From positions 1 through 64,000 of the forward strand of contig BEHE01000002.1 of assembly GCA_002898395.1 (NCBI GenBank): 64,000 bases of DNA, written 5' to 3'. This DNA is from Candidatus Calditenuaceae archaeon HR02. GTDB taxonomy: Archaea; Thermoproteota; Nitrososphaeria_A; Caldarchaeales; Calditenuaceae. The notes beneath the pieces are model-generated. The model was given only the letters and a program-made list of their open reading frames with translations. It was not told where the DNA came from and did no database searches. The stretch's first letter is position 1. Each line of letters begins with the position of its first letter. Below, in pieces: positions 58,239 through 62,360 of this stretch. The position numbers were made by a program, and so were the translations under genes.

Positions 58239-58628
58239 ATGTCGCTTCAGAAGTTGAGAAGGCCTAGTCCACGAGAGTTAAGAAGGATGCAGGACAGGAT
58301 GCTTAGCAGTTTAGGAGTCTCTATGGAGGAGCTAGGCCTTGCTAAAGAAGTCACGATAGAGCTTCAGGACAGGACAATCAGGATAAGTGGACCTGCTGTG
58401 GTGGCCATTAATTCACAGGCCGGCAGAATATACCAGATTGTAGGTGGCGAGGAGTTTAAGTCACCAAAAGGAGAGGGAGAAGGGCCTCAATATGAGCCGA
58501 GCCCGGAGGATGTGGCCCTAGTCGCAGCCCAAGCAGGTGTTGAGCCGGAAGAGGCAAGAAGAGCTCTCATAGAGTCTGGAGGAGACTTGGCCCGCGCAAT
58601 AATAAGCCTCAGGACACAGAAGACATGA
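58239..58628 (+). CDS. nac: nascent polypeptide-associated complex protein
   Basis: PRELRRM..LG, YQIVG, UBA tail EDVALVAAQAGV..GDLARAI. Confidence 0.93.
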   Translation: MSLQKLRRPSPRELRRMQDRMLSSLGVSMEELGLAKEVTIELQDRTIRISGPAVVAINSQAGRIYQIVGGEEFKSPKGEGEGPQYEPSPEDVALVAAQAGVEPEEARRALIESGGDLARAIISLRTQKT

Positions 58629-60360
58629 GACTTTCTCCAGGCTGATTTCTCAGCAGAATTGGGAGAGACTGCAGTAGATCCAATATTGGCTCCCTCCCAT
58701 GCAGCTTAGCCAGTCTTTCTACAGCCGAATCCTCCAGCACTATGCCCCCCAATAACTGAGCAAGATCCTGCAAATGGTCTAGATTTAGCGCCAAGAATAT
58801 CCCCGAGAGATCGTTACAATAGTGGTTTAACGGTCCCCGTATTTCTGTCTCGGGAGAGAACCTGTTATTTGCAAGAACCTTATCGATCGAGTAGAGCCTG
58901 TCTGATAATTGCCTTGGCCAGCTCGAGGCTATTACGACTCTTCCCCTGAGAGATGGAACACTGTTGATAGCTTCTGCCAAGCACCTTATAACGCGGGCTA
59001 ACAAATTGTATCCTTCATCCACCCCAGTTAATAACGGTCTCATAACCTCGACCAGACCAATAGGAGCCAGTAGGTAGAGCAACTGTATCCGCGGAGCATC
59101 TTTATGGAATTTGTAGAGGTAGCGGGTGCACCGCTCCAGATATCTGGCCAGCCTTTCAAGCATCGGGGACAGTCTTTGAATCATTATAGACTCATCAAAC
59201 CCGCTATTATTCAATAGCCGCAGAAAGTTAAGGCCCATGAAGGAGTGAACACCGAAGTCCCCTGAAACGGAAGTTTTGATAGCGTATTGTGTGAATAGGG
59301 TTCTATCACCTCTGTAGAAGGTGTAGAGAATCGGGCTTTCAGCCCTGGAAGGCAGTCCTACAATTACTTTATCGACCCACTTACATCTATTCAAGACCTC
59401 GTCAAGTCTATGACCACTCAGCAATTTTTCGGAATACTTGGCTATAATTGGGGTAGGGCCCTCAATTAGAAAGTAAATGTCCTCAGGAAAAGGGTAGGAA
59501 GGGGTTGGATATTCCCGTAATTCTGAGTCTACATCAAGTTGTATTATAAGGTCGTTGTACACCAGCCCCAATACTTTTGGAACAACGCTCTCGTCGTATT
59601 TTGTGAGTGAAACACTAAAGAATTGTAAGGGTCCGCGGGGTAGAGGATACAAGTCGAGCTCTCCTAAGTAGTAGTGCTGTTTAAGCTGCTTTTGAAAGAA
59701 TTTTTCAACGATAAGTGTCCGCATCGTTGTGTCGAGGATGAAGTTTTTTAGCATTTTTAGGTTCATTTTCTCCACGGATCTGTGGAAGGCTGAGTAGAGC
59801 TCCCGTATTGTGGGGGTTGATGGCATGATGTTTGATATCTTCTCTAGCTCAATATTTCTGGAGAGGAGCTCTACCCTCAAGAGATCCTCAACAAGCCATC
59901 TCGGGATCATGGACGTCTGCAATTCATCTAGCTTCTTTTCAACTAGAATCCCCACACTACGGGCTAGGTCTGCCGGGATTTGAATCGCCTCCACCAACTG
60001 TTCAGCTATGATGTTCCTATTGATTGGCTCGAAAGAGTAGTCCCAATTAAGCACAATCAACTCGCCTGATACAGATTTACGTTGAAGGTTACGTACCACT
60101 TCGACCGCCCTCCTACCTAGCGGCGTTAGTGAGTATGTTCGAGACTTGCCCGAATATTCGATAAGACCTGCCCTCAACACTGTCTTGAGATGATATGTAA
60201 ATTTCCCTACATCCTCCCGCTCACTTAATCCTGCATATTTCATCAGTTCGGAGAAGTTCATCTGCGACGTACTTAGGGCCTCTATTATTGAGAGTCTGAT
60301 GGGTGAGGAAATTGCTTTCAAAATGGATGCTACCTCAGCTCTGCCATCCTCATGTCTCAT
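58609..60360 (-). CDS. wHTH + ATP-cone + degenerate class III RNR (NrdD)-like protein
   Basis: KAISSPIRL..GKFTYHLK; EPINRNIIAEQL ATP-cone; eroded NrdD-like segments (HYYLGELDLYPL, GLNFLRL, PIGLVEV). Confidence 0.65.
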   Translation of the reverse strand: MRHEDGRAEVASILKAISSPIRLSIIEALSTSQMNFSELMKYAGLSEREDVGKFTYHLKTVLRAGLIEYSGKSRTYSLTPLGRRAVEVVRNLQRKSVSGELIVLNWDYSFEPINRNIIAEQLVEAIQIPADLARSVGILVEKKLDELQTSMIPRWLVEDLLRVELLSRNIELEKISNIMPSTPTIRELYSAFHRSVEKMNLKMLKNFILDTTMRTLIVEKFFQKQLKQHYYLGELDLYPLPRGPLQFFSVSLTKYDESVVPKVLGLVYNDLIIQLDVDSELREYPTPSYPFPEDIYFLIEGPTPIIAKYSEKLLSGHRLDEVLNRCKWVDKVIVGLPSRAESPILYTFYRGDRTLFTQYAIKTSVSGDFGVHSFMGLNFLRLLNNSGFDESIMIQRLSPMLERLARYLERCTRYLYKFHKDAPRIQLLYLLAPIGLVEVMRPLLTGVDEGYNLLARVIRCLAEAINSVPSLRGRVVIASSWPRQLSDRLYSIDKVLANNRFSPETEIRGPLNHYCNDLSGIFLALNLDHLQDLAQLLGGIVLEDSAVERLAKLHGREPILDLLQSLPILLRNQPGESLMSSVS

Positions 60361-60469
60361 AACTTCCCTCTGCAGAAGACAAGCCTGCCACTAAAGCTTT
60401 ACTGAGCCCAAAAACGCGATACCTTAAATTACTCCCAGTTGAGATTATTACCGAGTGGACTGGTCCAAC

Positions 60470-60543
60470 GGGCCCGTAGCTCAGCCAGGTAGAGCGGCCG
60501 GCTCATAACCGGTAGGTCGTGGGTTCGAATCCCACCGGGCCCA
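60470..60543 (+). tRNA. tRNA with CAU anticodon, most likely tRNA-Ile2
   Basis: GGGCCCG/CGGGCCC-A acceptor (Ile-type), anticodon loop CTCATAA, T-loop GTTCGAATC; no intron, CCA not encoded. Confidence 0.92.
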
Positions 60544-60645
60544 CACGAGGCGGGTAGATAGTAATTATGGAATGTAATTACGAATGACGACTGGTTCGTA
60601 GGCATGGAAACGGATAAGGGAAAGAAAGGGGAGGGGTTTACGTTG

Positions 60646-61517
60646 TCATCGAATCGTCAGAAGAAGCCCTCTCTTCTTCAAATATTCCTCGAGTCTCTTC
60701 CTCTCGATCGTGAAACTGACCTTCTCGTAGAACGTCAGATTCGACTTCTTACTCACCTTGACGTAATAACAGTCTTTTCTCTGTCTATACACTTTCCCCG
60801 TCTCTGGATCTCTAATCGGCGTTCCGGCCCGCTGACGCAATATCGGCTCATCTGAGGTCGTCTCTATTCCGATTCTGCTCAGCAGGTATATCACGTATTC
60901 TAGTAGCCTGTAGTCGGTGTTGGTCACCTCAATTATACCATTTTTACGAACGCAGCCCTCGCTGTCGAAGAATCCTCGTAAAAATGCCGCGATACATCTC
61001 TCGCAGTGCTCAACGTACGGTCTGATCTTCTCGATATCTATGGGTTTCTTGAGCAGTTCGTAAAGTGTTTTGGATGCGACTTCGACGACCCATCTACCGT
61101 CTTTATTCAGTCTTGGTATTGGTGGTTCCCTTCCCAGAACCCTCGCTATTGTCTTGGCATAGAACTCGCCGAACTCTTTGTCCTTGACCATTAATCCGAT
61201 AAAGAATTCGTCATATGTTGGTGGCGGTTTACTTTTCTTCCAAACATAACCGTCTCCAGCCTCAACTCCGATCACGTAGGCTAGATCCTCTGAAGGCTTC
61301 AGGAACTCTAATGTCGGTACTCTGATTCCGTTGTAAGGAGAGTGTTTCCTATTGCACCATTCGCTGCAAGCGGACTTGCGGATAGTAACGTTATATCTTC
61401 TCTTTATCTCCTTGATTATTTGTCCGTAAGACAGTCCCTGTTTTCGGAGTTCAAGAACGTCCTCGTGGATCCTTATCCTCAGCCCCCTCGGGAGATAACT
61501 TCCCCCCTCTTCTCCAT
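60646..61517 (-). mobile_element. stand-alone HTH + LAGLIDADG endonuclease, 1-nt frameshift near the start
   Basis: LAYVIGVEAGDG and FLRGFFDSEG motifs; the frame extends upstream through an HTH (GLSYGQII..SEW); ATG 61517 is out of frame across a G6 run. Confidence 0.8.
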
Positions 61518-61559
61518 TATTTCTTCTCTCCTATCACCCATTCTATACCACCTTTCTGA

Positions 61560-62360
61560 GTGCTAGGGTGTATTTGTGCTATAGGTCGTGGTTGTGTCCC
61601 TTTATTGTGTGGTATCTTGCTAGGCCGGTGTTTGATAGCTTGAACTTCAATGTCTCAACGTGTTTAAACCCGATGATCTCCGCCAGCTCTATTGTCAGAT
61701 TGTTAGGCTTACTAGGTCTCTTGATAGCCTGTGTAGCTTGTTGTTCCTGAAGTTCTTTAGGACTATAACTGCTAGGTCTCTGTTATTGTTGGTTCTGTTT
61801 AGGCATAGGTACATCGAGGCCAGTATCCCTAGCCATGCAGCCCTTAGATGTCTCCCAATCATCAATACAAGATTCCCACCACTAGTAATGACTAGTTTCT
61901 CGAGCCTTGGCCTGAACCCGCTGTTTACCAGCAGGCCGTATGGTGGTGAAGTTATTATTACGCGGCGTCTCTCACCGTTGAGCCGTCCCCTAGGCCTTAT
62001 AGCCCCGTATAGACATGCCGCATTCATGCTGTAGGCGTCTAGTAGTGTGCTGTGGTTTGTCACTGCAATCATCTCTCCCAAGAGCTCTTCAGCAATCTTG
62101 GCATACGTCGGCTCGACATCGTTGACTATTAGGTGGTTGTTGTCTGTGAGTCTGCAGGCTATGGCGGGGATAAATCTAGGCCCCCAAAATGTGGGGAGTA
62201 CCCCCTACCCCGGCCATAGGGTCTATAACAACATCTCCAACCCCAACACATCTCCTCCAGAGATAGTGGCTAGATGCTAAACCCTAGCAGTTTTAGTGGA
62301 AGACTTTTACTTGTAGATATGATGTTACTGCTGGCTTCAGGCTTAGGATGCCTGTGAGCA
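61560..62360 (-). pseudogene. degraded SAM-dependent amino-methyltransferase (DNA N4C/N6A or Trm11-like)
   Basis: GDVVIDPMAG.G (about 62215), ITSPPYG (about 61940), VIVLKNF..TIELAEIIGF split by stops and frameshifts. Confidence 0.6.

Follow-up and report, generated by a model that had tools for sequence, protein, structure and literature searches.

What does a protein do that joins a predicted DNA-binding domain to the remains of a ribonucleotide reductase (RNR)? The question is raised by an open reading frame (ORF) at 58609..60360 on the minus strand of a 64,000-nucleotide stretch of DNA (hereafter the window; positions 1 to 64,000 of contig BEHE01000002.1) from the hot-spring archaeon Candidatus Calditenuaceae archaeon HR02. 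The original prediction, made from the letters of the window alone, described its product as an ArsR-like winged helix-turn-helix (wHTH) followed by an ATP-cone-like segment and about 400 amino acids (aa) resembling class III RNR (NrdD). We find that all three domains are present in this order and that the frame is intact, with an ATG start and 583 aa before the stop codon. We consider it likely that the protein is a one-component DNA-binding regulator of the ArsR type, in which a dead RNR-derived body would serve oligomerisation and signal reception and whose ligand is probably not ATP or deoxy-ATP (dATP) at the cone.

Domain architecture and descent of the protein

Curated sequence models alone reveal only one of the three domains, the wHTH. 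It is matched in Pfam by PF24038 (DUF7347; 32.7 bits, cut-off 27.6) and PF01022 (HTH_5; 23.3 bits, cut-off 22) at residues 13-89, and in NCBIfam an ArsR/SmtB subfamily model reaches 28.5 bits, far under its cut-off of 55. At thresholds as loose as E ≤ 10, neither the ATP-cone model PF03477 nor the NrdD model PF13597 (NRDD) matches the protein or any of its seven close homologues. A search of the genome with the PF03477 profile at E ≤ 1 matched three other places and not this gene. Searched by sequence against the PDB, both the protein and a profile of eight sequences returned chance-level matches only (Hmd hydrogenase, E 0.28; a designed coiled coil, E 0.012).

A full-length AlphaFold2 model built on an alignment of 128 family members has a mean predicted local distance difference test score (pLDDT) of 92.9 and a predicted template modelling score of 0.83. 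Its residues 2-99 superpose on SmtB (PDB 8qkf) with Z 13.7 and a root mean square deviation (rmsd) of 1.8 Å over 92 residues, and the motif GKFxYH of the recognition helix is nearly invariant among the 128 sequences. The wHTH thus belongs to ArsR/SmtB by fold and sequence family; ArsR/SmtB proteins have about 100-120 aa, whereas here the wHTH makes up the first sixth of the protein. When the full model was compared with the PDB using Foldseek, class III RNRs took all the top places (E 1e-7 to 1e-5, probability 1.00). VIA-align superposed residues ~172/199-575 on the NrdDs of P. copri, T. maritima, phage T4 and S. thermophilus with Z 16-18 and an rmsd of 3.9-4.2 Å over 330-364 residues, and the model shows the ten-stranded alpha/beta barrel fold of RNRs. 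Independently of this model, the ESM Atlas model of the C-terminal part matches NRDD clusters with TM (template modelling) scores of 0.71-0.73 over 361-379 residues; in the language model of the Atlas, this part has the NRDD and YjjI glycyl-radical families as its neighbours (score 0.91).

For the middle domain, residues 97-188 were folded alone with AlphaFold2 on 18 orthologous slices (pLDDT 86.4) and compared with all 48,161 PDB representatives without the Foldseek pre-filter. Only ATP-cones are among the seven best matches, which align over 81-90 residues: S. coelicolor NrdR (Z 10.6), the NrdB cone of L. blandensis (Z 10.1), the NrdD cone of S. thermophilus (Z 9.6), E. coli NrdR (Z 8.8), P. 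copri NrdD (Z 7.3), A. aeolicus R1 (Z 6.6) and E. coli NrdA (Z 6.1). Unrelated chains start at Z 6.0.

Relatives connect the protein to NrdD at the level of sequence as well. A word-indexed search returned seven homologues with 42-77% identity which, where named, come from Nitrososphaerota metagenome-assembled genomes and are labelled 'winged helix-turn-helix domain-containing protein'. With phmmer, 245 of 1.84 billion representatives were matched at E ≤ 1e-3 and 103 at E ≤ 1e-10. Many of these matches are proteins of 700-800 aa that cover only query residues ~10-172, and P0014-P0019 align with the query over about 440-540 residues. Among the 24 of the 245 matches that were scanned with Pfam, 12 consist of DUF7347, ATP-cone and NRDD (NRDD E 1e-19 to 2.6e-91, lowest in P0038; also P0048 and P0107), and four further ones have a weak NRDD match (6.7e-5 to 2.5e-8). 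PF03477 was found in 16 of the 24 (E 7.7e-10 to 3.1e-4), in 11 of those above the cut-off. Several relatives of 565-640 aa, P0014-P0019 among them, align with most of the query and combine a significant or near-significant ATP-cone with a weak partial NRDD match (P0015, 2.5e-8; P0036, 3.1e-6; P0019, 6.7e-5); they are the intermediates between the 583-aa protein and NrdD. In the databases, the relatives carry labels as different as 'anaerobic ribonucleoside-triphosphate reductase', 'ribonucleoside-triphosphate reductase', 'HTH domain-containing protein', 'helix-turn-helix domain-containing protein' and 'ArsR family regulator'.

Profile comparisons follow the same chain. The eight-sequence query alignment matches 45 long forms, that is, the wHTH + ATP-cone + NrdD-like proteins of 700-800 aa, with a probability of 99.9 and E 4.7e-34 in hhalign (485 columns, query 4-498 on template 3-619). 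The long-form profile in turn finds the solved NrdDs of P. copri (3.7e-44), S. thermophilus (2.9e-41), T. maritima (1.9e-37) and phage T4 (8e-29). Without the wHTH and the cone, the C-terminal part of the query still matches the long forms (probability 88.5, E 2.7e-6, 127 columns). For the cone, the profile of the window clade, i.e. the protein and its closest relatives, matches that of the long forms (probability 97.3, E 1.8e-11), which matches the cone of true NrdDs (probability 94.2, E 1.2e-7); the direct comparison of window-clade cone and true NrdD cone is not significant (E 0.12).

Loss of the catalytic residues and of the basic residues of the cone

The long forms occur in Thermoproteota, Bathyarchaeia and other archaea, and the 583-aa protein is the most reduced branch of this large family. 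In a FastTree phylogeny of a trimmed alignment, rooted on true NrdDs and made without the 11 fragments shorter than 540 aa, the long forms branch off at the base as a paraphyletic group, mid-length forms with a Zn ribbon and without the tail are nested among them, and the short forms constitute a derived clade. The window clade lies inside the family on a long terminal branch. To the 128 family sequences we added 12 genuine NrdDs of the same phylum and counted residues in the columns of one MAFFT alignment, with tiers defined by length at boundaries of our own choice (540, 620 and 700 aa). As the relatives are not independent, these fractions should be read as a description of the sample and not as statistical tests.

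True NrdDs of the phylum have the finger loop 'SMCCRL' and a C-terminus of the form 'C..C ... YSRVVGYLRPVDQWNDGKQ'. The former agrees with the MGCR/MCCR motif given for the catalytic finger-loop cysteine of NrdD in an RNR phylogeny preprint (bioRxiv 10.1101/2022.04.23.489257). The catalytic cysteine is present in 12/12 true NrdDs, in 1 of 56 long and 1 of 32 mid-length forms, and in none of the 20 other short forms or the 9 members of the window clade, of which eight have Ile, including the 583-aa protein, and one has Val. The glycine that carries the radical is likewise found in all 12 true NrdDs and is rare elsewhere (long 11/56, mid 2/32, other short 0/20, window clade 0/9); only two proteins have G followed by Y or F at this place. 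The first CxxC of the Zn ribbon is present in 53/56 long, 24/32 mid-length and 3/20 other short forms and in 0/9 of the window clade. The whole wHTH-fused family therefore looks non-catalytic to judge from these columns, and the window protein additionally lacks the Zn ribbon and the tail. In its last 140 aa there is neither a CxxC pair nor an RxxG[YF] motif, and the aligned Zn and radical columns are gaps, so that the C-terminal Zn site and the glycyl-radical RxxGY loop are missing, as had been noted from the sequence. The barrel stops at the point where the Zn ribbon and the glycyl-radical domain would start.

Compared with NrdD (PF13597; PDB 8p27, 4con and 1h78), the protein has kept the order of an N-terminal ATP-cone and an RNR barrel, with homology traced through the chain of family intermediates, and has gained an N-terminal wHTH. 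It differs by the loss of the finger-loop cysteine, Zn ribbon and glycyl-radical tail and by a first barrel half that is about 130 residues shorter, seen as gaps in the hhalign alignment with the long forms. With the long forms it shares the domain order, the full-length homology and the loss of the cysteine; unlike it, they retain the Zn ribbon, a vestigial tail, NRDD and ATP-cone domains that Pfam recognises, and the basic residues of the cone.

These basic residues bear directly on the question of nucleotide binding. In a study of NrdR (PMC9110341), K50 and R51 in a hairpin of the S. coelicolor protein are described as binding the nucleotide phosphates. The corresponding hairpin reads V-R-K-R-D in true NrdDs of the phylum, V-R-[T/R]-S-x in long, mid-length and other short forms, and [V/M/A]-[L/Q]-[N/S/G]-W-D in the window clade, where 'VRKRD' of true NrdD aligns with 'VLNWD' of the 583-aa protein and the NrdR pair with Asn-Trp. 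The hairpin arginine is found in 53/56 long, 27/32 mid-length and 18/20 other short forms, and the Lys/Arg of a second motif, 'FD(R/K)xKI', in 53/56, 28/32 and 20/20, respectively; in the window clade both count 0/9, with Ile, Val or Ser in place of the Lys/Arg. The segments of the 583-aa protein in which basic residues of its relatives are replaced read 'VLNWD' and 'INRNII'. The cone of the window clade is still conserved and has invariant residues of its own (D107, Y108, R115 and W155). Since both basic positions are lost, canonical binding of ATP, dATP or another triphosphate at the cone of the 583-aa protein appears unlikely.

Genome inventory, selection and neighbourhood

The genome (1.73 Mb in 36 contigs, 93.65% complete) contains no match to PF13597. 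For the activase NrdG, of which the original prediction had seen none nearby, the one model searched (TIGR02495) gave six matches genome-wide, all below the cut-off (best 45.9 bits versus 131), which look like generic radical-SAM (S-adenosylmethionine) matches. There is no match to the NrdR model TIGR00244, and NrdR is described as rare in archaea in the NrdR study (PMC9110341). The genome does encode an ATP-cone-bearing RNR of the Ribonuc_red_lgC type (class II-type) on contig 12. A second RNR large-subunit gene is apparently split over contig ends, with an ATP-cone at the start of contig 19 (C19:142-348) and a C-terminal half on contig 22 (C22:1571-2572) that is about 55% identical to the enzyme on contig 12.

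In a sample of 201 genomes of the phylum, an NRDD match was detected in 152, many having a strong match (E 1e-120 to 1e-205) together with a second one (1e-67 to 1e-95) in an ORF of about 640-860 aa. For the family to which the source organism belongs the count is 0/7 genomes. Five genomes (G141, G183, G176, G162 and G109; loci L032-L036), out of about 32 with a second copy among the matches listed, have a long form directly upstream of and co-oriented with a real nrdD, with wHTH-type N-termini. In two of these five loci pyrB (TIGR00670, 375 bits) adjoins nrdD, in one of the two accompanied by pyrI; NCBIfam scans of a few neighbours at the five loci revealed nothing resembling NrdG.

All domains of the 583-aa protein are under purifying selection, and the gene is maintained rather than a relic. 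With the Nei-Gojobori method applied to orthologues of the same genus, the four closest give an overall ratio of nonsynonymous to synonymous substitutions (dN/dS) of 0.14-0.19 (dS 0.67-0.89). It is lowest in the wHTH (0.007-0.09; 0.13 against an orthologue with 54% identity, for which synonymous sites are saturated in most segments), 0.08-0.16 in the cone and 0.07-0.27 in the three barrel segments. Of 61 genomes sampled from the order, 54 have a match to the gene, mostly a single one; 8/8 of the genus (this one included) are among them, and a sister genus counts 0/7. The frame is intact in 7/8 genus genomes; one orthologue (G159) has an in-frame TGA.

The features of the locus are collected in Table 1. 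The pairing of the tRNA-Met gene with the regulator gene is kept in all seven genus loci aligned; the orthologous tRNA of one of them (L020) contains an insert of 29 nt that is probably an intron. Across the order, the regulator gene faces a convergent NAC gene on its downstream side in nearly all of 12 loci, with Spt5 and L11-like genes nearby in some. The ornithine carbamoyltransferase gene argF (TIGR00658, 377-409 bits) is the divergent upstream neighbour of short forms in 7/12 loci (L049, L051-L054, L056 and L059). In the source genome argF lies on another contig than the regulator gene (C12:44035-44937). These argF and NAC neighbourhoods may represent inherited gene order rather than regulatory links. 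Beyond the LAGLIDADG ORF, at 61300-62300, there is nothing but overlapping ORFs on the two strands, and Rfam gave no match there.

Table 1 Features of the regulator locus in the window. Positions refer to the 64,000-nucleotide stretch; nt, nucleotides.
Feature	Position	Strand	Remarks
Whole ORF: wHTH + ATP-cone-fold domain + NrdD-derived barrel	58609..60360	-	Seven close homologues; in 54/61 order genomes; dN/dS 0.14-0.19
ArsR/SmtB-type wHTH (DUF7347), aa 1-97	60070..60360	-	PF24038, PF01022, SmtB superposition, lowest dN/dS of the protein
Degenerate ATP-cone, aa 98-185, beta-hairpin and helices	59806..60069	-	Structure search, profile chain
Reduced class III RNR (NrdD) alpha/beta barrel, aa 186-575, without finger-loop Cys	58636..59805	-	VIA-align, Foldseek, profiles, Atlas TM score
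NAC gene	58239-58628	+	Convergent, downstream; overlaps the 3' end of the regulator gene tail to tail by 20 nt (58609-58628)
Perfect palindrome TAAAGCTTTA	60392..60401		32-41 nt upstream of the ATG
tRNA-Met (CAT)	60470-60544	+	Divergent, upstream; about 110 nt from the regulator ATG
Free-standing LAGLIDADG_3 ORF, 209 aa	60646-61275	-	PF14528, E 1.6e-17; beside the tRNA

Upstream of the regulator gene, the palindrome TAAAGCTTTA has a core, AAGCTT, that is invariant in 7/7 aligned genus loci; the full 10-mer is kept in six of the seven and occurs once in the 1.73-Mb assembly. It is a possible operator, but as it lies at the position expected for a TATA box we do not claim it as one; it is probably the TATA box and transcription factor B recognition element (BRE) of the regulator gene. 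The conserved blocks upstream of the gene are accounted for by two promoters, that of the tRNA and that of the regulator gene itself. The argF-regulator intergenic regions of the seven loci are not comparable because of differing start-codon calls. Conserved blocks also precede the RNR gene of class II type (contig C12, about 70600-70850; L037). Shared by eight genus loci, they comprise ATGGCCAAT, which is invariant, CTTAAAA, which resembles a TATA box, and GGCCCA(n4)TGGGCC, an inverted repeat that directly precedes the probable GTG/TTG start. This repeat has a single copy in the assembly and might serve as a regulator site or form a 5' hairpin.

Possible roles of the protein and of its family

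The protein is best explained as a non-catalytic descendant of the anaerobic (class III) RNR, with an ArsR-type wHTH fused to the ATP-cone and a shortened ten-stranded barrel of NrdD. The wHTH would bind DNA, the RNR-derived body would form an oligomerisation and signal-receiving module, and any ligand would either bind the cone in a different manner or sit in former sites of the barrel. The folds, the homology, the loss of every part needed for radical chemistry and the purifying selection on each domain come out of the analysis directly; DNA binding and a regulatory role are what we infer. A regulator that combines a ligand domain with a wHTH is of a type already known; the enzyme-derived body is unusual.

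Several observations weigh against this interpretation. In VIA-align, the alpha barrels of class I RNRs score nearly as high as those of class III (Z 14-16.8), so the fold alone says 'RNR barrel' and the assignment to class III rests on the sequence chain. The alignment used for the AlphaFold2 model itself includes NrdD-like relatives. The C-terminal part of the query matches the 12 true NrdDs of the phylum weakly when compared directly (E 0.0038, 43 columns, falling on the expected N-terminal barrel motif), and the link to NrdD hence depends on the intermediates and the predicted structure. The stepwise reduction is read from a FastTree topology whose support values were not inspected, and the order of losses is indicative only. 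The neighbours of the gene (tRNA-Met, the LAGLIDADG ORF and NAC) are not tied to nucleotide metabolism, and no RNR gene adjoins the regulator gene, that of the class II-type enzyme being located on a different contig. Finally, the upstream alignments of the RNR gene (8 genus loci) and the regulator gene (7 loci), read by eye, have no motif in common, and the regular-expression strings tried on the genome gave no shared site.

The strongest competitor of a regulator with an altered ligand is the role originally predicted, in which the protein would sense ATP/dATP or deoxynucleoside triphosphates (dNTPs) with its cone in the manner of bacterial NrdR and would repress or activate the RNR gene of the organism. 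It gains from the confirmed cone fold, for which NrdR is the best structural match, and from the selection that maintains the cone. The genome has a cone-bearing RNR and no NrdR match, and relatives stand directly upstream of nrdD in five genomes. We nevertheless regard it as unlikely for the 583-aa protein: both basic cone positions that most relatives retain are lost, the phosphate-binding hairpin pair described in the NrdR study (PMC9110341) is Asn-Trp here, the protein gets no match from the ATP-cone model of Pfam, and the gene is unlinked to the RNR gene and has no promoter motif visibly in common with it. Of the original prediction, the RNR-derived pseudoenzyme thus stands on its folds, its homology and its lost radical chemistry, and the NrdR-like response to (d)NTPs is supported in part, being weakened for this protein by the altered cone positions and the lack of an adjoining RNR gene. 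The comparison with NrdR (TIGR00244; PDB 7p37 and 9fzf) extends to a DNA-binding domain combined with an ATP-cone fold. NrdR, which like NrdD switches between oligomers, binds paired boxes at RNR promoters. It has about 150 aa and an N-terminal Zn ribbon with an RRRR motif, whereas here a wHTH occupies this place, a 400-aa dead RNR barrel follows, the phosphate-binding hairpin residues are not conserved, and the two proteins are not homologous as a whole.

It is less probable still that the protein is no transcription factor and acts as a partner or regulator of the class II-type RNR or of another nucleotide enzyme, or as a general chromatin or structural DNA-binding protein without a specific regulon. 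RNR alpha subunits dimerise via their barrels, and this, the conserved housekeeping neighbourhood with NAC and in some loci Spt5 and L11-like genes, and the lack of an operator in the upstream alignments read by eye would be in keeping with such roles. Against them stand the wHTH as the most constrained part of the protein and the near-invariance of its GKFxYH motif; no sign of a protein partner emerged, although no search was aimed at one. A decaying or functionless nrdD remnant, or conversely an enzyme with altered chemistry, would accord with a barrel eroded beyond Pfam recognition and the single in-frame TGA and is scarcely credible, as dN/dS is well below 1 in every segment (on which ground the decaying pseudogene was rejected), the frame is intact in nearly all genus genomes, the gene is widespread in the order, the model is confident, and catalytic cysteine, glycyl-radical site, Zn ribbon and an activase match above cut-off are all missing.

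Thus, a regulator with an ArsR-type wHTH and a dead RNR-derived body remains the preferred explanation for the 583-aa protein. For the wider family, the functional analogy to NrdR is plausible by comparison, as the long forms have Pfam-significant ATP-cones and are placed directly upstream of nrdD in the five genomes; this nucleotide sensing at the family level is not simply transferable to the 583-aa protein. Tentatively, and with some doubt, the whole wHTH + ATP-cone + dead-NrdD family might be the archaeal counterpart of NrdR, sensing nucleotide pools by way of the former allosteric and substrate sites and controlling the supply of DNA precursors and related carbamoyl-phosphate-using steps (nrdD, pyrBI and argF), with the window clade as a sensor rewired after the loss of class III RNR. 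If so, the window clade has shed the Zn ribbon and the phosphate-binding residues of the cone and has stayed under selection, which would point to a new ligand or a ligand-independent role.

Searches of full texts outside subscription journals and supplementary files yielded no description of a wHTH-NrdD fusion or of DUF7347. In the accessible part of the RNR phylogeny preprint (10.1101/2022.04.23.489257) the term 'helix-turn-helix' was not found, and that of the NrdR study (PMC9110341) contained neither 'winged' nor 'helix-turn-helix'. Where long forms bear the name 'anaerobic ribonucleoside-triphosphate reductase', a metabolic reconstruction may credit an organism with anaerobic dNTP synthesis in error.

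How archaea set the transcription of their dNTP-supply genes is largely an open question, NrdR being mostly absent there according to the NrdR study (PMC9110341). A widespread DNA-binding protein derived from a dead class III RNR would, if real, offer a candidate answer, and it would clearly exemplify an enzyme recycled into a regulator. The window protein stands at the far end of this series: its reductase and cone are invisible to sequence models, databases say only 'ArsR-family' or 'wHTH', and its origin could still be recovered through structure prediction and intermediate sequences. It lets one see, as in a natural experiment, what is retained of the RNR scaffold once the chemistry, and probably also nucleotide binding at the ATP-cone, is gone.

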